This document shows, piece by piece, positions 3,923-60,771 of a stretch of 64,000 bases of DNA (positions are counted from its first letter, which is position 1; each line of letters opens with the position of its first letter). Source of the DNA: Candidatus Bathyarchaeota archaeon (GTDB lineage Archaea; Thermoproteota; Bathyarchaeia; Bathyarchaeales; Bathycorpusculaceae); contig CAWDYC010000008.1 of assembly GCA_963806535.1 (NCBI GenBank), positions 96,001 through 160,000 on the forward strand, written 5' to 3'. Made by a program: the position numbers and the translations under genes. The notes beneath the pieces were generated by a model, which did not search any database, was not told where the DNA came from, and saw only the letters and a program-made list of their open reading frames with translations.

Positions 3923-5030
3923 TCTAACCAAGGTTCCCGAAGAAATCCTAAGAGAAGCCCAACAGGCTGGCATAGAATCCACCTCTGAGAATAGGGCAGG
4001 ATCCTTTTTCCATATGGATTCTGCTACCATTCAATCAAAAGTTAGCGAGGCATATGAAGGAAAAATTGAACTTATGGATGTTAAGTCTGCTCTTAAGAAA
4101 TATTCATGGCTTAAGGAGTACTTTTGGAAAATCGTTGACAAAAACAAGGATGAATTTACCAAGAAAGTTGAAGAAGATTATAGCGGTGGCTATTTTATAC
4201 ACATCTTGCCTGGAGCTGACATAACTTTTCCGCTGCAATCTTGTCTTATGATAACTCAAAAAAACCTTGAACAGCGTGTGCATAATATCATAATTGCTGA
4301 AGAAGGCTCCAAGTCACACATAATTACCAGTTGCCTGCAACATTCCACGGTTGAAAAAGCGTCGCATTTGGGAATTTCTGAAATATACGTAAAAAGAGGC
4401 GCTATGCTCAATTTCACTATGATCCATCAATGGAGCGAGGATACGCTAGTGCGCCCAAGAAGCGCAGCTGAAATAGCTGACAAAGCCACCTTTGTCTCAA
4501 ACTACGTGTGTATGCGCCCCGTTAGGGATATACAAATGTACCCTTCAGCCAACTGCATAGGTGAGGATTCTCGAGTAAGCTTTAACAGCATTCTTTATGG
4601 TCACAAGAACTCTTTGTTGGATATAGGATCTAAAGCAGTTTTAACTGGAAAAGGCAGTAAAGCCGAAATGATAAGTCGAGCCATTGCAAGGGAAGGCTCA
4701 AAAATAATTGTTCGAGGATTAATCGATGGTAATAGTTCTGAATGTAAAGGGCACCTTGAATGTAGAGGGTTGCTTATGGATGACCTATCTTTGATGCAGT
4801 CCATACCTGAATTGATCGCTAGAAAGAAGGGCGTGGAAATAACCCACGAAGCGGCAGTTGGCAAAATATCGGAGAAAGAAATAACTTATCTGCAAACACG
4901 TAAACTTTCCCGCGACCAAGCAGTCTCTTTAATCATACGAGGCTTCATGGATGTTGGCATACTTGGCTTGCCTGACGCGTTAAATGCGGAAATCAAGAAA
5001 ATAATAGAAACTTCTACCCAAGCCACTTAG
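3891..5030 (+). CDS. sufB: Fe-S cluster assembly scaffold SufB/SufD family (SmsB type); start uncertain
   Basis: FPLQSC, QRVHNIIIAEEGS, KGHLECRGL, ITHEAAVGKI, LIIRGF; the frame stays open upstream of the tracked ATG 4014 (...QAGIESTSENRAGSFFHMD) to an in-frame CTG at 3891. Confidence 0.9.
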   Translation: MEAGKITNQSDLTKVPEEILREAQQAGIESTSENRAGSFFHMDSATIQSKVSEAYEGKIELMDVKSALKKYSWLKEYFWKIVDKNKDEFTKKVEEDYSGGYFIHILPGADITFPLQSCLMITQKNLEQRVHNIIIAEEGSKSHIITSCLQHSTVEKASHLGISEIYVKRGAMLNFTMIHQWSEDTLVRPRSAAEIADKATFVSNYVCMRPVRDIQMYPSANCIGEDSRVSFNSILYGHKNSLLDIGSKAVLTGKGSKAEMISRAIAREGSKIIVRGLIDGNSSECKGHLECRGLLMDDLSLMQSIPELIARKKGVEITHEAAVGKISEKEITYLQTRKLSRDQAVSLIIRGFMDVGILGLPDALNAEIKKIIETSTQAT

Positions 5031-5110
5031 AAATCGCAGGTCAACATAAAAAACAGGTGGCAATTCATCCTTCCTAAACCAATAAGTAGACGCTCAACCA
5101 ACCTTACTTT

Positions 5111-6693
5111 ATGGTAAACGCTACTTTTCCGAAGATAACTTATGTTACTTTGTTTGCAGATGAGAGCTATTCACCCCAAATATGAGGCTGCTTTGGGAAA
5201 ATTTGAGAAAGAGCTTGGTCGCCGCTATCCCATGTTCATTGGCGAAGAAGAAGTATGGTCAGATTCTGGCGAGTTTGAGCATCACAGCCCCATTGACACT
5301 TCAATAACTGTGGGAAAATTCCAAGTCGGCACGCAAAAACATGCCAAGCTTGCAATCGCGGCAGCCAAAGAAGTCGTTCCCAGGGTGGAGCCAAAAAGGG
5401 TGGCAAGAACGGGTCAACATCATGAACAAGGCAGCAGATTTGATTGATGAACGGAAATTTGACATCGCGGTTGCTATCACATATGAAGTCGGAAAGAACC
5501 GTCTTGAAGCCCTTGCTGAATGCTGGGAAGCCATAGACGCAATAAAATTCTACACAAAAATCATGCAAGAGAACAACGGGTACATCAAAAAGATGGAAGA
5601 AGGTGGACCTGGCGAGGATTGCAAGGTTGTCTCAAAACCATTCGGCGTCTGGCCTGTAATTTCGCCCTTTAACTTCCCATTCATGTTAGCCAACGGAATG
5701 GCTCTTGGCGCCCTCCTTACAGGAAACACAGTTATCCTAAAGCCAACAAGCGAGGCTCCGCTCACGGGCTTAATGCTCTATAATGTCTTCAAGGATGCAG
5801 GAGTGCCTGAAGGAGCAATCAACTATGTCACAGGTCCTGGTCCAAATTTTGAGGAGGAGTTTGTTTCAAACAAAGATGTTGCAGGAATCGCTTTCACAGG
5901 CTCAAGAGAAGTTGGAATGAGACTTTATCGTGAGTTTTTGACTCAGCAGCCGTATCCTAAGCCGATCGTGCTTGAGATGGGAAGCAAAAACCCAGTTGTT
6001 ATAACTTCGTCAGCTGACATCGGCAAAGCGGTTGAGGGAACGGTTAGGTCGGCGTTTGGCTATGGCGGGCAGAAATGCAGTGCAACATCAAGAATCTATG
6101 TGCAGAGCAATATTCGAGACAAATTCTTGGATAAGCTTAGGGAACGAATTGAGAAGATAGTTGTGGGTGATCCTAGGGAAAAAGAGGTTTTCATGGGACC
6201 AGTGATTAACAAAACCGCAGTAGAGAAATTCACTAGGGCATTAACCGAAGCAAAGGAAGCAGGTGGAAAAGTGATTACTGGCGGCAAATGTTCTCCGAAG
6301 GCAAATTCAAAAATGGATTCTACCTATCGCCCACAGTCATAATTGGGTTGCCACAAACTCACAGGCTCTTCAAAGATGAGCTATTCACGCCGTTGATTGT
6401 TGTTGACGAATTCAAAACCCTTGATGAAGCCATAGCAAAAGTCAACGACACCGAATATGGATTGACAGCAGGCATCTTCTCCGAAGATCCAAAGGAAATA
6501 CAAACCTTCATGAATCATGTGCAGTTCGGAGTTCTCTATGCAAATCAGGAGCGGTGGAGCAACAACGGGAGCATGGCCAGGTGCCCAATCCTTTACAGGC
6601 TGGAACGCCAGCGGCGCAACGGGACGAGGAGTTGGAGGATCGAATTATCTGCTTAATTTTCTCCGCGACCAATCCCAAACGATCGTTTCCTAG
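5111..6693 (+). CDS. Aldehyde dehydrogenase, 1-pyrroline-5-carboxylate dehydrogenase-like (four apparent frameshifts)
   Basis: ISPFNFP, FTGS, LEMGSKNP, GQKCSA, ELFTP, EYGLTAG, ending GAWPGAQSFTGWNASG..LRDQSQTIVS*; frame changes near 5167, 5371, 6288 and 6547. Confidence 0.85.
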
Positions 6694-53544: not shown

Positions 53545-55018
53545 CTATTTTTTTCCAAGAGGAAATTCAAGGGTGAACCTTGTTCCTTTTCCAACTTGGC
53601 TTTCAACACTTACCTTACCATTTAAGGCCTCAGTCAACTTTTTGACAACTGCCAAACCGAAACCTTGTCCTTTAGCTTTAGTTGTAAATAGAGGCTTGAA
53701 GAGTTTATCTTTTGATTCCTCTGGTATACCTACACCGGTATCTTGGACAGTTATCACCAACGTATGGTCGTTGTTTTCAGCTTCAAGGGTTAGTTTTCCA
53801 CCTTCTGGCATGGCTTGAACTGCATTTGAAGATAGATTTATTAGAATTCTCTTCATAGCGGCAGGATCGGTCAATAATTTATTAAGGCAAGGCTCTACAG
53901 AATAAAAGACATTTATGTTTTCAGGAATTTTCAAGTTTGAAAAAACATCATCAACAATTTTTGTAAAATCAGTTTCTTCAATTGAAGCAGCTATGGGTTT
54001 AGCATAGTCTTGAAGATCGGTGACAATCTTGTTTATATAAAATGTATTATCTTCAATTGATTGTACGCTTTCCTGCAGGTACTTTTTAGATTGGCTATCA
54101 GGCAAATCCTCTATTTCTTTTTTTGATAAGAACAGCTCGCCGATGATAGCTTGCAAGGGATTGCGGATGTCATGACCAACCATCCCCGCTGTAGCGCCAA
54201 TTGCAGCTAGACGTTCATTATCTTGAAGCTGTTTTTCTAAACTCATACGCTTACTAATATCATTAAATAATATGCCCACTTTCCAGGGTTTTCCTTCACC
54301 GACTGGGAATGCAAAAACATCGTAATAACGGTTCAATGCTCTTGCTTCATTAGTGAAACGAACGGGCTCTCCTGTCATGGCGACCTTACCGTAGATCTGA
54401 AACCAATGCTCTTCATGATTTGGAACAAGACTGCGCATTAATTTTCCCGCTGCGTCATGTAATCCCGTCTGTTTCTCAAATGAAGCGTTAATTTCCAGAA
54501 ACCGATAGTCCAGAGGCTTTGCATCTGCATCAAAAATCAACTCGACAATGCAGAAGCCCTCGTCAATCGAATCAAACAATGTTCGGTATCTTGCCTCACT
54601 TACCTTCAGCGAAAGCGTACGTTTTTCAACGGTTTCCTCTAATTTCTTACGTTCAATGGCATAACGTATCGCTCGAAATAGTAAAGTAGCGTCAAACTTT
54701 CCTTTGATAAGATAGTCTTGCGCACCTCTTCGGACTGCTTCTAAAGCTACTGAGTCATCGTTGAAACCAGTTAAGACAAGAATAGGTAATTGTTTCGCGG
54801 ATGCATGTATCTTTTCAAAAGTATTTAGACCCTGACTATCAGGCAGTCCAAGATCAAGCAAAATGGCATCTATGCCATTTGCTGCCAAACGATCTAATCC
54901 TTTTGAAAGCCGGTCGACGCGCTCTATTTTGCGTATACCCGTTTGTTCAGTTAGCATCTCTTCAATAAGCCGAGCGTCACCAGCGTTGTCTTCAATCAGC
55001 AAGATTCTAATTTTCTAT
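53545..55018 (-). CDS. Hybrid sensor kinase: receiver-PAS-HisKA-HATPase
   Basis: (K)IRILLIEDN, LLDLGLPD, GAQDYLIK, GHDIRNPL, NLSSNAVQA, DTGVG, GQGFGL; the start codon appears disrupted by one base (see findings). Confidence 0.9.
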
Positions 55019-55464
55019 TGCTCCTTTGGAGGCAGTTTTACTATAGTGAACCAGAATTCTTCAAGTGCATGAATTATTTCAACGAATCGGTTTAAGTCAA
55101 CAGGTTTGGTGATGTAGGCGTTTGCATGCAGATTGTATGTTTTGATTATGTCTTCATCTGCTTTTGATGTTGTTAGGATAATCACGGGAATATGCTTAAG
55201 CTTGGGGTCTTTCTTGACTTCAGCTAATACTTCTCGACCATCTTTTCTAGGCAAATTCAAATCCAATAGTATCATATCGGGAATCGGGGCATCTACAAAT
55301 TGTCCTTGCCTATGCAAGAAGTCCATTGCTTCGACGCCATCTTTAGCGACGTAAATTTCGTTTAGTACTTTTGCATCTTTTAGGGCTTCTTTGGTTAACC
55401 GAACGTCTCCAGGATTGTCTTCCACTAGTAAAATATCCACCGCTTCTGCATTAACTTTCTTCAT
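55015..55464 (-). CDS. Single-domain response regulator (Rcp1-like)
   Basis: ILLVEDNPGD, LLDLNLP, LTTS, ANAYITKP, FWF. Confidence 0.93.
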   Translation of the reverse strand: MKKVNAEAVDILLVEDNPGDVRLTKEALKDAKVLNEIYVAKDGVEAMDFLHRQGQFVDAPIPDMILLDLNLPRKDGREVLAEVKKDPKLKHIPVIILTTSKADEDIIKTYNLHANAYITKPVDLNRFVEIIHALEEFWFTIVKLPPKEQ

Positions 55465-55469
55465 TTCTT

Positions 55470-57347
55470 TTAATCACTCCTTTTTTGTTTGTTTAATGTG
55501 AAATAGATAGTTGAACCTTTTCCCACTTGTGACTTGATCCAGATTCGTCCGCCATGGCGTTCTACGATCCTTTTACAAACGGCAAGACCTATTCCGGAAC
55601 CAGGATATTCTTCTCTGGTATGAAGACGCTGGAAAATCTTGAAAAGCCTATCGAAATATTCTGGGGCAATACCTATGCCGTTATCACGCACTGAAAAAAC
55701 GTATTCATTTCCTCTATCTTGAGCTGACACGTGAACTCGTGAGGGCTCTTTTCCATGGAACTTTATTGCGTTGCCGATCAAATTTTGAAGCAGTTGAACA
55801 AGTTGCCCTCCATCAGCGTTAACTACTGGAAGCTTATCATGCGTCACCACTGCGTTGTTTTCCGTAATTGACGCCTTCAGATTCAGAAGCACTACTTCAA
55901 GGGTTGACTCAAGGTTCGTTGGTTCAAATGGCTTGCCAAGTCTGCTAACTCGAGAATAAGTCAAAAGGTCATCGATTAAGCCTCGCATACGGTTGGCTCC
56001 ATCAACAGCGTAGCCAATGAACTCGTCAGCGTCCTTGTCTAATTTTCCTTTGTATCTCCGCTCCAATAGCTGGACGTAACTTGCTACCATGCGCAGTGGC
56101 TCTTGAAGGTCATGCGATGCTACATAGGCAAATTGTTCCAATTCAGAATTTGACTGTTTGAGTTTTTCCATGGTTAGTTTTATTTCATTCTCCATTGCGT
56201 TGCGTTCGGTAACATCTCTTGCAGCTGCAAAAACACCTTGTATGTCGCCTTGTGGGTTTCTATAAATTGATGCGTTGTACAATACGTCGGTAATTTTGCC
56301 CGACTTATGACGAATTGCCAAGGGATAATCTTTGACAAAGCCTTCGGTGAAAACTTTCTGGTATCCTGCTCTTGCATCTCTGGGTTCAGTGAAATAATCG
56401 GAAAAATCGCTATCGACAAGTTCTTCTCGAGTGCATCCGGTAACGTCTTCAGTTGCCTTGTTAACATCGGTAATCTTTCCTTCCTTGCTAATAGTAACCA
56501 GCGGGTCTAAGCTTGCCTCGATTAAGCTTCTTGAATAAAGTGAGGCAGCAAACAATTTTTGTTCAGCTATTTTCCGTTCGGTTACATCACGCGCAGCTGC
56601 GAAAACTCCCTGAATTGTACCATCTTCATTTCTGTAAACTGTGGCATTGTATAATACATCAGTGATTTTGCCAGATTGGTGACGTATAGCAAGCGGGTAA
56701 TCTGTAACGTATCCCTCTGTAAACACTTTTTTGTAACCGATCCGAGCTTTTTCTGGTTCCGTAAAGTAATCTGAAAAATCGCTTCCGATCAATTGATCGC
56801 GTGTGTAGCCAGTGACTTCCTCAGTTGATTTGTTGACGTCCGTGATTTTACCTTCTGCGCTAATAGTAACTAAAGGATCAAGGCTTGCTTCGATTAAGCT
56901 ACGAGAATATAAAGAGACGCTTTTCAGCTTCTCTTCTGCTTGCCTACGCTCAGTGATGTCCCGAGCTGCAGCAAAGACACCTTGAATTTCTCCAGCCGCG
57001 TTCTTGTAAACGCTTGCATTGTACAATACATAGGTTACTTTGCCTGATTTATGACGAATAGCCAGAGGATAATCTCTTACATAGCCTTCCGTGAACACTT
57101 TTCTGTATCCAGCTCGAGCCTCCTGAGGTTTGGTGAAGTAGTCGGAAAAATCGCTTCCAATCAATAAGTCCCTTGAACATCCAGTGACTAGTTCTGTGGC
57201 TTTGTTGACGTCGGTTATTTTTCCTTCGGCACTGATTGTCACAAGAGGATCAAGGCTTGCTTCAATAAGACTTCGTGCATATAACGATGCAGAACGAGTC
57301 TCATCAGCCGTTTTTCCCTTAACCGGTAGCTTTTCGTTTTTCACCAA
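55470..57347 (-). CDS. Sensor histidine kinase with three tandem PAS domains (Cph1-like kinase core)
   Basis: Three 124-aa repeats starting SLY(A/S)RSLIEASLDPLVTIS; YVASHDLQEPLR, NLIGNAIKF, DNGIG, GSGIGLA. Confidence 0.93.
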   Translation of the reverse strand: MVKNEKLPVKGKTADETRSASLYARSLIEASLDPLVTISAEGKITDVNKATELVTGCSRDLLIGSDFSDYFTKPQEARAGYRKVFTEGYVRDYPLAIRHKSGKVTYVLYNASVYKNAAGEIQGVFAAARDITERRQAEEKLKSVSLYSRSLIEASLDPLVTISAEGKITDVNKSTEEVTGYTRDQLIGSDFSDYFTEPEKARIGYKKVFTEGYVTDYPLAIRHQSGKITDVLYNATVYRNEDGTIQGVFAAARDVTERKIAEQKLFAASLYSRSLIEASLDPLVTISKEGKITDVNKATEDVTGCTREELVDSDFSDYFTEPRDARAGYQKVFTEGFVKDYPLAIRHKSGKITDVLYNASIYRNPQGDIQGVFAAARDVTERNAMENEIKLTMEKLKQSNSELEQFAYVASHDLQEPLRMVASYVQLLERRYKGKLDKDADEFIGYAVDGANRMRGLIDDLLTYSRVSRLGKPFEPTNLESTLEVVLLNLKASITENNAVVTHDKLPVVNADGGQLVQLLQNLIGNAIKFHGKEPSRVHVSAQDRGNEYVFSVRDNGIGIAPEYFDRLFKIFQRLHTREEYPGSGIGLAVCKRIVERHGGRIWIKSQVGKGSTIYFTLNKQKRSD

Positions 57348-57597
57348 ATATAGGTTGCCTTCGTAATAATTTTCAATTAATTAGAGACTATTACAAAATA
57401 TTTGATGATAAAAGCTTTTTCATTTGGTGTAACAAAATTGGACGTACATTATAAAATCATAAGTTATCGCTCAAGTACAATACCTGTCGTGGGGGGTTCG
57501 ACATTTTTGGGGGCATAGTGAAGCATTAGTTAAGTTTAAAATCTTCTCTAAAGATATAGGTAGAGCACCAATCTGAGATCGTAGGGGAAAAGGGTTT

Positions 57598-59814
57598 ATG
57601 GTAAATCAGCCACCGCAACGCGCACGCGGCGTAAAAGTACTCAAAGCCGTCTCGTCACCTCTCAGACTGCAAATCTTAAACTTACTTTTCGACAAAAGCG
57701 CTCTCTCGTACACTGAATTAATGAACCAGTTGAAAATGAATCCCAGCCGAGATGCAGGTAGATTCGCTTATCACCTAAAATTTATGTTAAAAGCTGATTT
57801 GGTTGAGGCAGATGTTGAAGCAAAAAAATATTATCTGACTGACCTTGGCAAAATGGTTCTTGATGTTGCTGATCGTGTGGAAAAGAAAGCGTTTAAGCCG
57901 AAAGGAATGATTGTCCGCACATCCCATTTAACACTTGAAGAGTTTGACGCAAACAAAATAGCTAATTCTCTAATAAAAGAAGCAAAAGTGCCGGCTGAAC
58001 TTGCTCAAAAAGCAGCTAAAGAAACTGAAAAACGTTTAATCAAATCAAAAACAAAGTATTTGACTGCCGCTTTAATCAGGGAAGTCGTGAATGGTATTTT
58101 AATTGAGAAGGGCTATGAAGAATACCGCCATAAACTCACTAGAGTCGGCATGCCCGTGCATGAGGTAACAGTTTCAATTGAATCAAAAGACCAAACCACT
58201 GATTCAACTGCTTTACTTATTAGGGCAGGTCAAGCAGTTCTTAGCGAGTACACTTTACTCAACATTTTTCCAAGAGATATTGCTGACGCTCACCTTTCAG
58301 GTGCCATCCACATTGACAATTTAGGCACATGGATACTGAAACCAAACGAAGTCAGCCATGACATGCGTTTCTTCTTCCAAAACGGGGTCAAACTCGACAA
58401 TCCACTTCAAACATCAATGGAGCCACCGAGAGATTTTGAATCTGCTTTGTCAATTGCATTCAATATGCTTTTGCATGCAAGCAAAGAAACAAATCGGGTC
58501 CAGATATGTAATTACTTCAACATTTTTCTTGCACCCTTTGCTAAAGGTGCTGAAACGACAAGAATAAAGGAAAATTTACGTTTGTTTATTTTAAACGTAA
58601 ACCAACAAACCGAATCTACATTAGTTCTTGAACTTTCAATTCCAAAATCAACCGCTGAAAAAGAAGCAATGGGCCCACTTGGAAAAATCGCAGGAAAATA
58701 TGGCGATTATGCTCAAGAAAGCCAATTGCTGGCCTCAATTATTATTGATATATTCTTGGAAGAAAACGCCAAAAAACCCCTACTTAATCCTAAACTCATA
58801 ATTAGGATTAACCAGGACAGTTTAGCCGATGAAAACGCCAAGGAAATTCTATTTAAGGCACACCGATTATCTGCAGAGAGAGGAACACCCTATTTTGCCA
58901 ACATAACAAAAAAAGAAACCGAAAACACTGTTTTCTCACCTTCAGGAGCTAAACTTTCAGCGGACCTGACAGGAGATTGGGAAACCGACACACTTCGGAC
59001 AGGCTGTCTTGGTTGCGTAACAATAAATTTGCCCAGAATTGTTCAAGAAAGTGAGAAGGACAAAAACAAATTTTTCGAGCTTGTAAGGGAACGTTTTGAA
59101 GTTGCCGCTCGAACCATAGGAATCAAGAACAATGCATTAAAGCAATTTGGAAAAAACTCCTTGCCGTTCCTGCTAAAAAGCTCCAGTGGAGACACTTATT
59201 TCAGGCTTGAAAACTGCTCCAGAATTATCAACTTGGCTGGATTTAGAGAGGCAGTAGAAGCTTTTACCGAAAAAAACATTAACTCTGATGAGAGCCGCAA
59301 GTTTGCCGAAGAAATCATTCAGAATCTTCTGGCCTTCAAACAGAAAATCGGCAGAAAACATGGAAAGAGACTGTACCCCGTCATTCTTAGCAATCCTGAA
59401 GCGTCTGAGAGGCTCGCCCAATTAGACATTGAGAAGTATGGAGTCGCCAAGACAAAGTTTTCGGGAACCAGAGAAAAACCATATTACTCAACCGCTAGAC
59501 GATTCCAAGTGAAGGCTGCTGAAATTCTAACCATAGCACCCGAAATACTAGAAATGGCGCAAAAAATGAAGGGGCTAAGTGTCGGTGGAACCCTGGATAT
59601 TATAGAGTTAGATGGTGCTGAAGTAAAACCTGAAGCATTAATGGATTTAACAAAACGCATTATTGAAAACCAATCTTTGGAGTTTTTCACTTACAACCGC
59701 ATCATCAGTTACTGTGATAACTGCAAGAAAAGCTGGTTTGGAACAGTTCACAAATGTCCATCCTGCGGCTCAATGAGCGCATTGACGACGTTCGATCGCT
59801 TCACTTCTATATGA
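57598..59814 (+). CDS. ArsR-like HTH + ATP-cone + class III ribonucleotide reductase (NrdD)-like fusion, apparently catalytically inactive
   Basis: HTH (SPLRLQIL..LSYTELM..FAYHLK), ATP cone (FDANKIANSLIKEA..LIREVV), NrdD landmarks ADAHLSGAIHI, GTPYF, GDWETDTLRTG, VTINLPR, CDNC..CPSCGS; no GCR and no RxxGY. Confidence 0.85.
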   Translation: MVNQPPQRARGVKVLKAVSSPLRLQILNLLFDKSALSYTELMNQLKMNPSRDAGRFAYHLKFMLKADLVEADVEAKKYYLTDLGKMVLDVADRVEKKAFKPKGMIVRTSHLTLEEFDANKIANSLIKEAKVPAELAQKAAKETEKRLIKSKTKYLTAALIREVVNGILIEKGYEEYRHKLTRVGMPVHEVTVSIESKDQTTDSTALLIRAGQAVLSEYTLLNIFPRDIADAHLSGAIHIDNLGTWILKPNEVSHDMRFFFQNGVKLDNPLQTSMEPPRDFESALSIAFNMLLHASKETNRVQICNYFNIFLAPFAKGAETTRIKENLRLFILNVNQQTESTLVLELSIPKSTAEKEAMGPLGKIAGKYGDYAQESQLLASIIIDIFLEENAKKPLLNPKLIIRINQDSLADENAKEILFKAHRLSAERGTPYFANITKKETENTVFSPSGAKLSADLTGDWETDTLRTGCLGCVTINLPRIVQESEKDKNKFFELVRERFEVAARTIGIKNNALKQFGKNSLPFLLKSSSGDTYFRLENCSRIINLAGFREAVEAFTEKNINSDESRKFAEEIIQNLLAFKQKIGRKHGKRLYPVILSNPEASERLAQLDIEKYGVAKTKFSGTREKPYYSTARRFQVKAAEILTIAPEILEMAQKMKGLSVGGTLDIIELDGAEVKPEALMDLTKRIIENQSLEFFTYNRIISYCDNCKKSWFGTVHKCPSCGSMSALTTFDRFTSI

Positions 59815-59817
59815 AAG

Positions 59818-60771
<954 letters not shown>

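Follow-up and report, generated by a model that had tools for sequence, protein, structure and literature searches.

What becomes of a ribonucleotide reductase (RNR) that has lost its catalytic residues and carries a predicted DNA-binding domain at its N-terminus? This question is raised by a gene at positions 57598–59814 (plus strand) of a 64,000-nucleotide stretch of DNA, referred to below as the window, from Candidatus Bathyarchaeota archaeon (GenBank assembly GCA_963806535.1, contig CAWDYC010000008.1, positions 96,001 to 160,000 of the forward strand). Its product, the window protein, belongs to a family whose members carry the automatic database names "anaerobic ribonucleoside-triphosphate reductase", "ArsR family transcriptional regulator", and "helix-turn-helix domain-containing protein", and its close homologues are labelled Candidatus Bathyarchaeia or Bathyarchaeota. 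The comparisons described below suggest that the window protein is probably a transcription factor that responds to nucleotides and acts on RNR or nucleotide genes, much as NrdR does in bacteria. Its domain anatomy, residue losses, conservation, selection, phylogeny, and synteny were established directly by alignment, profile search, and comparison of loci. Residue invariance was scored in an alignment of 85 proteins of the helix-turn-helix (HTH) type. The features of the gene, all on the plus strand, are as follows.

57598..59814, plus strand: whole open reading frame (ORF) of 738 residues with an ATG start, encoding a winged HTH (wHTH), an ATP-cone, a catalytically dead barrel of class III RNR (NrdD), and a Zn ribbon
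57637..57864, plus strand: wHTH, residues 14–89 (Pfam DUF7347, 31.3 bits; cut-off 27.6)
57910..58125, plus strand: ATP-cone, residues 105–176, which opens with VRTS and not with the canonical KR-type hairpin (PF03477, 30.3 bits; cut-off 25.8)
58135..58158, plus strand: cone-to-barrel linker LTRVGMPV, residues 180–187, with R182, G184, and P186 invariant in the 85 sequences; the motif also occurs in active NrdDs encoded in tandem with the gene in relatives
58228..59799, plus strand: NrdD-type barrel, residues 211–734 (Pfam NRDD, 238.7 bits)
58336..58365, plus strand: lost first active-site Cys position, LKPNEVSHDM, residues 247–256, with E251 in place of Cys (alignments to T4 NrdD and canonical archaeal NrdDs)
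58930..58962, plus strand: finger loop without the radical Cys, VFSPSGAKLSA, residues 445–455, with A451 in place of Cys (alignments to T4 NrdD, 9d3x, and archaeal NrdDs)
58996..59037, plus strand: RTGCLGCVTINLPR, residues 467–480, in which the NLPR motif is kept (N477 invariant, P479 and R480 in at least 90%) and the Asn of GNL reads Cys
59710..59772, plus strand: Zn ribbon CxxC...CxxC, residues 705–725, aligned with the Zn site of 8p23 and 9d3x
59794..59814, plus strand: what is left of the glycyl-radical motif, DRFTSI, directly before the stop codon and aligned with QRITGY

The strand opposite this ORF is closed by many stops. The best HTH match of the protein was the archaeal DUF7347, and Pfam also detected HTH_5/ArsR on residues 20–70 (27.4 bits; cut-off 22). 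The score with the metalloregulator model NF033788 (ArsR/SmtB) was 31.6, under the cut-off of 55. The wHTH part of the family profile matched the HlyU structure 3jth (E 6e-4), the Csa3 model of PADLOC matched residues 12–168 of the protein (1.8e-7), and the putative recognition helix lies around DAGRFAYHLK. In the barrel, the NRDD match spans profile positions 17–538 of 562 and leaves the glycyl-radical end of the profile unmatched. The fold was assigned from sequence profiles, and the family profile recovered the solved NrdD structures 9d3x (3.3e-43), 8p23 (4.5e-40), 4coi (1.2e-35), and 1h78 (1.1e-33). The Zn-site residues C706, C709, C720, and C723 are invariant across the 85 family members. 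With the NrdD equivalog TIGR02487 of NCBIfam, the protein scored 260.1, below the cut-off of 326.35, whereas true NrdDs scored 569.5 (the NrdD encoded elsewhere in the same genome) and 517 and 533 (two tandem NrdDs of relatives). Neither Zn_ribbon_NrdR of Pfam nor TIGR00244 of NCBIfam matched the protein. A defence or phage origin was considered and rejected, because PADLOC touched only the HTH of Csa3 models and PHROGs returned only NrdD-like families.

The radical motifs of NrdD are altered throughout. At the first active-site position, KP-NEVSHD aligned with FTNCCLVD of T4 NrdD and with RP-NCLQHD or RP-FCQEHD of canonical archaeal NrdDs. In the finger loop, SPSGAK aligned with SPMGCR of T4 NrdD and apMGCRs of 9d3x. 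The C-terminus, ...CPSCGSMSALTTFDRFTSI followed by the stop, aligned with CPKCGSH-HIDKLQRITG(Y) of 8p23, with Gly replaced by S737 and Tyr by I738, where the chain ends. In many relatives, what remains of the radical domain is longer and lacks the Gly, as in YGRSSATYAPL..W....R..Y; the chain of the window protein stops directly after the motif. Among the features that define class III RNRs, barrel homology and the Zn ribbon were found, and RxxGY, both Cys residues, and a TIGR02487 score above the cut-off were missing. On these alignments, the window protein cannot be a glycyl-radical enzyme. The first-pass annotation of this DNA had described an intact 738-residue ORF with an ArsR-like wHTH, an ATP-cone, an NrdD barrel, and a Zn site, reading DRFTSI in place of RxxGY, SPSGAK in place of MGCR, and KPNEVSHD at the first Cys position, and the ORF call, the Pfam matches, and the alignments confirmed what it had observed at 57598–59814 in every point. 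It had also listed GCL in place of GNL. That change is real (TGCLG) but is not diagnostic: active tandem NrdDs and the NrdD of the same genome have Ser at the GNL Asn position (MGSLQ, TGSIG), and the change therefore carries no weight.

To describe how the family is distributed, several collections were searched; numbers preceded by G, C, L, P, and f are our handles for genomes, contigs, loci, protein representatives, and families. A word-indexed search listed 120 clusters at 76–100% identity, almost all of 737–739 residues and nearly all with the same Pfam set. When 1.84 billion representatives were searched exhaustively with HMMER, 1761 matched at E<=1e-3 and 335 at E<=1e-30. Whole-genome searches detected a full-length homologue in 40 of 41 relatives, covering 16/16 genera, the single miss being a 65%-complete genome. 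At the level of the class, about 102 of 151 genomes, by hand count from printed tables, matched at E<=1e-90 and 136/151 at 1e-20; at the level of the phylum, 155 of 251 matched at E<=1e-45. Among the genomes searched, families f45 (0/19), f38 (0/11), f51 (0/9), and f53 (0/9) gave no match. A scan of a species-representative genome collection with an HTH pattern produced at least 600 matches, 599 of which were confirmed as relatives. The ESM Atlas has no entry for the window protein; its homologue P0004 led there only to clusters of like architecture with automatic names, and the reach of the family beyond the phylum, into Promethearchaeota and Nanobdellota, consists of Atlas leads. This feature is far beyond chance: hundreds of sequence clusters show the layout together with the losses. 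Nearly all of the other best 80 loci were titled Bathyarchaeia or Bathyarchaeota, and a few "Nitrososphaerota archaeon" or "uncultured archaeon". L118, which is titled as a metagenome-assembled genome of Methanocella sp. and encodes a protein 66% identical to the window protein, was also among these 80, and its title is likely a binning or labelling error.

The gene is under strong purifying selection. In 14/14 same-genus loci, the orthologues have a conserved start (MVNQPP..RARGVKVLKA), an intact frame, and the same length. The ratio of nonsynonymous to synonymous substitution rates (dN/dS; Nei-Gojobori) was 0.04–0.08 against six same-genus orthologues, and no domain exceeded 0.2 in the five pairs analysed by domain. 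For the homologues in ammonia-oxidising archaea, dN/dS was 0.02–0.10 overall, 0–0.025 in the HTH, and 0–0.06 in the cone. Occasional broken copies were seen in relatives: a second, stop-ridden copy lies beside the intact gene in G004 (C4 3071–5283, next to L019), and copies split by stops or frameshifts occur in G023 (C15 47582–49776), G070 (C4 69468–71680), and G119 (C3 909617–911789).

Conservation is distributed unevenly over the protein. Mean column conservation was 0.69 in the cone, 0.56 in the HTH, 0.53 in the linker and the first 80 residues of the barrel, and 0.37–0.38 in the bulk of the barrel. The identity of the window protein to its ammonia-oxidiser homologues follows the same order, with 55% in the cone, 35% in the HTH, and 15–22% in the barrel. 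The invariant residues include H59, Y78, and G84 in the HTH and V106, R107, F116, I121, L125, E128, R161, and L168 in the cone. Conservation is thus highest in the allosteric module and lowest in the catalytic half, which is the reverse of the pattern of an enzyme. The cone is of an archaeal type: a cone and linker signature, VRTS...E.F...KI...PLIRE.V...YR..LTRLG.P.YD, is common to the active NrdDs that adjoin the gene in relatives, and the identity to these neighbours is 35–43% in the cone and 26–30% elsewhere. We know of no biochemical study of the VRTS cone type. The cone of Prevotella copri NrdD (PcNrdD) binds two ATP or dATP through Lys7, Arg8, Tyr83, Arg87, and Arg91 (PMC11226230). With these residue roles, an ungapped transfer through intermediate alignments pairs Lys7 and Arg8 with T108 and S109, Tyr83 with Y176, Arg87 with L180, and Arg91 with G184. 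Since the Lys-Arg pair, Arg87, and Arg91 are replaced, nucleotide binding would have to rely on other basic residues, namely R107, R161, R177, which is kept in at least 90% of the 85 sequences, K179, and R182.

Whether the HTH and the radical residues occur together was assessed in an alignment of 95 representatives of 590–800 residues from the HMMER search. The HTH signature was present in 64 of them, and 62 of these 64 lack both the finger Cys and RxxGY; two keep one of the features (P0131 has GCR, and P0145 has RAEGY, which resembles RxxGY), and none keeps both. All seven representatives that keep both radical features lack the HTH. The figure of 64 is a lower bound because the regular expression used misses some HTH forms, such as P0172, which has DUF7347 by Pfam and RRLGY without the Cys. 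Three of the seven representatives with both radical features, the canonical NrdDs P0184, P0186, and P0205, were rejected as HTH carriers, since Pfam places a second ATP-cone in those columns. With these counts and the dN/dS values above, homologues share the fusion, the losses, and a ratio below 1, as the first-pass annotation had proposed to check.

A maximum-likelihood tree (quick search, LG+G4) was built from 54 rows, comprising 38 HTH forms, 15 proteins labelled canonical, and one HTH-less dead copy; all rows were kept, and the tree was rooted on the genome's own NrdD. The HTH forms constituted one clade, with values of 97 and 99 in the Shimodaira-Hasegawa-like approximate likelihood-ratio test (SH-aLRT), and this clade was sister (92) to canonical archaeal NrdDs including the tandem partners. 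Ammonia-oxidiser proteins were nested within it on a long branch. The tree indicates that the HTH forms have a single origin. Two HTH-less dead proteins, P0178 (one of the 15 labelled canonical) and the partner protein of L051, fell within the dead clade or at its base. Such HTH-less dead NrdDs were also seen as P0253, P0195, P0198, and P0224, and three HTH-less dead representatives have two ATP-cones and NRDD scores of 277–305 bits without radical residues. At L051, which belongs to a genome of another class (G184), the HTH-less dead partner (4176–6083, minus strand) directly follows the HTH form, has no finger Cys, and ends with the tail FSRSIAFYGRV.

Gene order connects the family with RNR genes of two classes. 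Of 16 relatives from outside the genus, 8 have an NrdD-like gene immediately downstream of the HTH gene in the same orientation, and among the matches listed for the class sample, a hand count in printed tables gave the tandem of HTH gene and nrdD in at least 17 genomes. In all of 20 fetched Bathyarchaeia tandem loci, the partner has the first Cys (PFCxxHD) and the finger Cys (QCCR or QCCA), and R(I/V)TGY is present in 19/20, the exception being the partner at L170 with an aberrant C-terminus. Four loci (L032–L035) contain a glutaredoxin-like ORF of 101–102 residues with CPRC or CTRC between the HTH gene and nrdD. Pfam Glutaredoxin was confirmed in the two that were scanned (L034 6233–6541, minus strand, and L035 7552–7857, plus strand), which hints at a thiol-dependent NrdD subtype.

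Ammonia oxidisers present a different arrangement. Family f37 was assigned to the ammonia oxidisers because archaeal amoA was present in the two genomes checked (389 and 381 bits). Among f37 genomes at least 90% complete, the HTH protein was the sole NRDD-family match in 59 of 61 (58/60 without G427, which is flagged unpublished), with 36–92 bits over frames of about 700 residues, and no canonical NrdD was found in these 59. In 20 of the 22 ammonia-oxidiser loci fetched, an ORF with an ATP-cone follows 174–328 bp downstream on the same strand. The one that was scanned comprises ATP-cone, Ribonuc_red_lgN, and Ribonuc_red_lgC and matched NrdJ_Z with 727.8 bits against a cut-off of 399.95, which identifies it as nrdJ, encoding the B12-dependent class II RNR; this nrdJ was the only PF02867 match in the two ammonia-oxidiser genomes checked. 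Since these organisms lack nrdD, the linkage to nrdJ is not a relic of duplication, and it argues for cis-linked regulation and against a mere partner of NrdD. As a side observation in another genome, G214, the canonical NrdD extends over a 2826-residue frame (C7 309471–317543, minus strand) in which the NRDD match is broken into five pieces, presumably by inteins, and the PF02867 gene of G214 lies in a 1267-residue frame.

Around the gene in the window, the following neighbours were identified.

59818..60756, minus strand: pyrB (aspartate carbamoyltransferase), convergent and 3 nt from the stop of the gene (TIGR00670, 388.9 bits, cut-off 236.95; Pfam OTCace_N and OTCace)
55470–57347, minus strand: PAS-repeat histidine kinase, divergently upstream, recognised by eye from the translation
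55015–55464, minus strand: response regulator, divergently upstream, recognised by eye from the translation
53545–55002, minus strand: REC-PAS histidine kinase, divergently upstream, recognised by eye from the translation

The convergent pyrB follows the gene in 16/16 same-family loci with 3 nt between the stops, and lies downstream in 51 of the 53 named Bathyarchaeia loci with enough flank. In relatives with the tandem, pyrB stands tail to tail behind nrdD (5 loci in one set and 7/12 in another). In the window's family, the tandem nrdD is missing and nrdD instead follows nrdR. The simplest history would start from the order [HTH gene]->(grx)->[nrdD]<-[pyrB] in an ancestor, with nrdD later lost in the window's family. 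The divergent kinase neighbour is kept in 1 of 15 other same-family loci, that of the closest relative (L018).

The working RNR of the window's genome is encoded elsewhere. The window lies on contig C8 of this 2.95-Mb genome (12 contigs, 91.75% complete). A second, canonical NrdD with MCCR and RVVGY is encoded on contig C11 (Pfam NRDD 648.9, NF006126 1081.7) in an operon of the order nrdR-nrdD-nrdG, whose nrdG scored 184.7 bits with TIGR02495, over the cut-off. This NrdD is of a different subtype with a KR-type cone and is 24% identical to the window protein. No class I or II large subunit was found in the genome. The statement of the first-pass annotation that no nrdG lies nearby held, since the single NrdG-family match over the cut-off is on C11 and none of the 18 radical-SAM matches falls on C8; the separate intact nrdD and nrdG that it had suggested looking for are those of the C11 operon.

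The same operon contains a true NrdR in an archaeon. The gene (L001 3582–4028, minus strand, on contig C11 of the window's genome, G000) lies upstream of nrdD and encodes Zn_ribbon_NrdR and an ATP-cone, with 153 bits against the TIGR00244 cut-off of 124.65. The 27 class genomes (of 151) in which NrdR was detected belong to two families: 19 of 20 members of the window's family, together with the window's genome, and 7 of 33 f24 genomes, with none in the other 28 families of the class sample. The order nrdR then nrdD was held in 12/12 fetched loci. No HTH-type match was obtained among the f24 genomes searched. Clusters 86–96% identical to this archaeal NrdR carry the name NrdR [Ca. Bathyarchaeia]. 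In a 2025 preprint (bioRxiv 10.1101/2025.03.28.645925), NrdR is described as absent from Archaea. The nrdR promoter (L001, about 4029–4290) contains TTATATA followed by TGTAGTGT-N17-ACACTACA, a pattern largely conserved over 13 aligned loci, with differences at some positions in the most divergent, L063 and L065. We take TGTAGTGT-N17-ACACTACA to resemble paired NrdR half-boxes. A further observation in this genome concerns contig C4, where three proteins of 234–249 residues with a similar DUF7347-like HTH are encoded within 8 kb (373243–381512, minus strand); they match the HTH of the window protein with E 8e-6 to 8e-4 and may be a local regulator family.

Sites at which a regulator could act were sought in the promoters, beginning with that of the gene itself.

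57527..57597, plus strand: promoter and 5' leader, conserved in 14/14 aligned upstream regions from the same genus

In this region, TAGTTAAGTTTAAA, which is TATA-like and contains the palindrome AGTTTAAA(C)T in relatives, is followed by ATAGGTAGAGCACC and then by a G-rich ribosome-binding stretch. Rfam gave nothing at the gathering score for the leader, the RAGATH-35 hit (20 bits vs 38.9) being a chance match, and RNAalifold detected no conserved RNA fold in the 14 leaders (z = 0.07). In relatives with the tandem, a promoter core, TACAG(A/C)ATTTTATACA, was present in 11/20 tandem intergenic regions. About 20 nt before the core, written TACAG.ATTTTATACA, lies a candidate double box. Its form as a candidate operator, TGTCAAAC-N9-TGTCAAT, was located between the HTH gene and nrdD in G029 (C81 3092–3114), G039 (C103 45613–45635), and G140 (C29 23277–23299). 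The double box TGTCAA(AC)-N9-14-TGTCAAT occurred 1–3 times per genome in relatives vs 0–1 in the reversed control, and the double TGTCAA box gave 9 matches in the window's genome vs 4 in the reversed control. The motif TACAGNATTTTATA had 0 matches in the window's genome.

In the ammonia oxidisers, an inverted repeat GAA-N1-2-TTC lies 75–115 nt before nrdJ in 14 of 20 spacers, and its frequency in coding sequence is 0.1 per 200 bp. GATC boxes number 4–5 per 200 bp before the HTH gene vs about 0.9 in coding sequence. Both elements were read in loci L045, L046, and L066–L085. Genome-wide, triple clusters of GATC were not rarer than in the control, with 36 vs 42 in G364, and were common in G182, with 131 vs 37. 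The GATC boxes are therefore kept only as a lead. The genomes in which the candidate motifs of relatives and ammonia oxidisers recur are kin, so conservation by descent may account for the motifs, and none of them was found at the relevant promoters of the window's genome.

The proposed function as a nucleotide-responsive regulator would have arisen as follows. A tandem duplicate of an archaeal class III RNR would be the source of the gene; it would have gained an N-terminal wHTH and lost radical chemistry, keeping the allosteric ATP-cone, the linker between cone and barrel, the dimer-forming barrel, and the Zn ribbon. The protein would form a dimer or oligomer through its NrdD core, and adenine nucleotides at the ATP-cone, possibly with nucleotides at the former effector or substrate sites, would shift its arrangement or oligomeric state. 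This shift would decide whether the two wHTH domains reach promoter DNA, by a logic like that of NrdR in bacteria and of NrdDs regulated through an ATP-cone. The ancestral and commonest targets would be RNR genes, namely the nrdD next to the gene in Bathyarchaeia and the class II nrdJ next to it in ammonia oxidisers. Because the adjacent nrdD has been lost in the window's family and a separate nrdR-nrdD-nrdG operon supplies the enzyme, the regulator would have to act in trans there, and the candidate targets in the window's genome are the nrd operon, its own promoter, and other nucleotide-metabolism genes. DNA binding, nucleotide binding, the regulon, and the sign of regulation are what we infer from these data. 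A broader proposal, that Thermoproteota (Bathyarchaeia and ammonia oxidisers, with leads to Asgard and DPANN archaea) have their own master regulator of DNA-precursor supply, which uses a whole class III RNR as a nucleotide-pool sensor, contacts DNA through its winged helix, and controls the RNR of whichever class is present, has in our judgement about an even chance of being correct.

Several results weigh against a nucleotide-responsive regulator of RNR genes. The canonical Lys-Arg pair of the ATP-cone reads Thr-Ser in the window protein, which makes nucleotide binding by a VRTS-type cone uncertain. The region aligned with Asn298, the specificity-readout residue of PcNrdD, falls in the least-conserved part of the family, which makes it doubtful that the old specificity site still plays a part. 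No RNA run was listed for the locus, which counts neither for nor against the reading, and one DNA run contained a 0.06 share of the sampled words. The gene adjoins no RNR gene in the window's genome, and no RNR gene was found within about 2.5 kb on each side in 8/8 loci from f42, f43, f48, f54, f57, f58, f65, and f66; in G187 and G210, the RNR genes are far from the HTH gene. The adjacency to nrdD in Bathyarchaeia could be partly a relic of tandem duplication and not a sign of regulation. As for operators, both blocks upstream of the gene are single-copy in the 2.95-Mb genome at 0 mismatches, and allowing 1 mismatch added one further occurrence of the first and none of the second. Comparison by eye found no motif common to the promoters of the gene and of nrdR-nrdD-nrdG, and the relatives' candidate operator was found in the window's genome at neither the promoter of the gene nor that of nrdR.

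These points lend themselves to other explanations. The protein could be a DNA-binding regulator in which barrel and cone are only an oligomerisation scaffold or sense something other than nucleotides, such as redox state through the Zn-Cys4 site or formate, with a regulon that is not RNR-specific. The missing Lys-Arg pair, the invariance of the four Zn Cys, the lack of an adjacent RNR gene in the window's family and in the 8/8 loci of eight other families, and the lack of an operator common to the gene and the nrd operon are all consistent with this, as is the presence of PAS histidine kinase and response-regulator genes divergently upstream, though that arrangement is kept in only 1 of 15 other same-family loci. 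We nevertheless regard it as unlikely: a mere scaffold hardly explains why the cone is the most conserved part and shares its type with the active NrdDs next door, linkage extends to RNR genes of two classes, and the f49 form (L047) ends without the CxxC Zn ribbon, its NRDD match stopping at 489 of 562. Alternatively, the first-pass annotation had raised the possibility of an inactive partner of a true NrdD. Such a non-catalytic or allosteric subunit would be joined to an active RNR as a heterodimer through the NrdD dimer interface or through cone-cone contacts, and its HTH would be secondary and serve, for example, autoregulation. The protein is indeed paralogous to active NrdDs with the same cone type that adjoin it in many Bathyarchaeia, HTH-less dead copies exist (the L051 partner, P0178, and P0253), and ATP-cones are reported to make protein-protein contacts in the tetramers of PcNrdD (PMC11226230). 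As a general account, however, the partner subunit is disfavoured and seems to us quite improbable, because 59 of 61 ammonia-oxidiser genomes maintain the protein by strong purifying selection although no canonical NrdD was found in them, the only NrdD of the window's genome is the divergent KR-type subtype, and the HTH is among the most constrained parts.

A bifunctional enzyme with a different, non-radical nucleotide chemistry and an HTH would account for the purifying selection on the barrel and for the motifs kept around the old active site (DAHLSG.IHI, NLPR, and W..D..RTG). However, the barrel is the least conserved part, with 15–22% identity between Bathyarchaeia and ammonia oxidisers, its C-terminal half is shortened in some lineages, and no new conserved catalytic residue appears, the invariant columns lying in the HTH, cone, linker, NLPR, and Zn site; such an enzyme is very improbable. 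That the gene is a decaying pseudogene or an assembly artefact, to which the occasional broken copies in relatives (the second copy in G004, G023, G070, and G119) might point, has virtually no probability left: intact frames of the same length and start in 14/14 same-genus loci, dN/dS of 0.04–0.08, and the presence of the gene in hundreds of independent assemblies refute it. With these alternatives weighed, the nucleotide-responsive transcription factor is the preferred reading. The earlier suggestion that a whole RNR scaffold was reused as a sensor of the deoxynucleoside triphosphate pool and a transcription factor thus stands in part. Purifying selection in every domain, the mutual exclusion of HTH and radical residues, and the linkage to RNR genes of two classes favour it, but the barrel is least conserved and the cone and HTH best, and it may not be the "whole" scaffold that senses.

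If this reading is correct, the family would be a clear case of pseudoenzyme evolution, in which catalytic residues were lost and the allosteric ATP-cone became the most conserved part. Under the broader proposal, it would also be the largest and most complete recycling of an enzyme's allosteric machinery as a transcription factor, filling the role that NrdR has in bacteria. The control of RNR expression by NrdR is well described in bacteria. Our literature search found no paper on an archaeal RNR regulator, and the family is a concrete and testable candidate for one. Bathyarchaeia are major anaerobes of sediments and peat, and ammonia-oxidising archaea are globally abundant and key in the nitrogen cycle; the family is nearly universal in both and, in the latter, stands next to the only RNR gene. 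The database names are misleading, and metabolic reconstructions that count the family as anaerobic RNR would err, for example in aerobic ammonia oxidisers. The search of full-text literature found no paper on an HTH-NrdD fusion, in keeping with the claim of novelty in the first-pass annotation, and supplements such as arCOG-style annotations and transcription-factor catalogues, which lay outside that search, might mention the fusion. An enzyme-derived regulator that bears an ATP-cone thus appears to lack an earlier description, and designs of the NrdR and PurR/GfcR types are already known.

Compared with these and other known systems, the window protein is homologous in its barrel, Zn ribbon, cone, and linker to class III NrdDs with an ATP-cone, such as those of Prevotella copri (8p23) and T4 (1h78). 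In PcNrdD, dATP drives the formation of tetramers in place of dimers and disorders the flap and the radical domain (PMC11226230). Unlike these enzymes, the window protein has neither the thiyl Cys nor the second Cys nor the Gly-Tyr pair, its radical domain is cut to 6 residues, and an HTH has been gained. Its N-terminal 90 residues resemble regulators of the ArsR/SmtB and Csa3 types, matching HTH_5, HlyU structures, and the wHTH part of Csa3, whereas its sensor module is an RNR and not a metal site or a CARF domain. PurR of Bacillus and GfcR of Haloferax combine an HTH with a catalytically inactive phosphoribosyltransferase, derived from a duplicated enzyme of nucleotide or central metabolism, and use the old ligand site as a sensor (PMC10838023). 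The window protein shares this design, with an N-terminal HTH on an inactive enzyme domain under selection, but not homology: the phosphoribosyltransferase fold is unrelated to the RNR barrel, and PurR and GfcR are much smaller proteins with experimentally known ligands and regulons. NrdR forms a DNA-binding tetramer with ATP and dATP and non-binding oligomers with ATP alone (PMC12051234). With its Zn ribbon and ATP-cone in about 150 residues, NrdR differs from the window protein, which has a wHTH, 738 residues, a whole dead NrdD barrel, and an archaeal VRTS-type cone, shares homology with NrdR only in the cone, and is encoded in a genome that also carries a true NrdR. The two are nevertheless alike in joining a DNA-binding domain to an ATP-cone, in the association of their genes with RNR genes, and in the proposed role, which would match RNR expression to the nucleotide pool.

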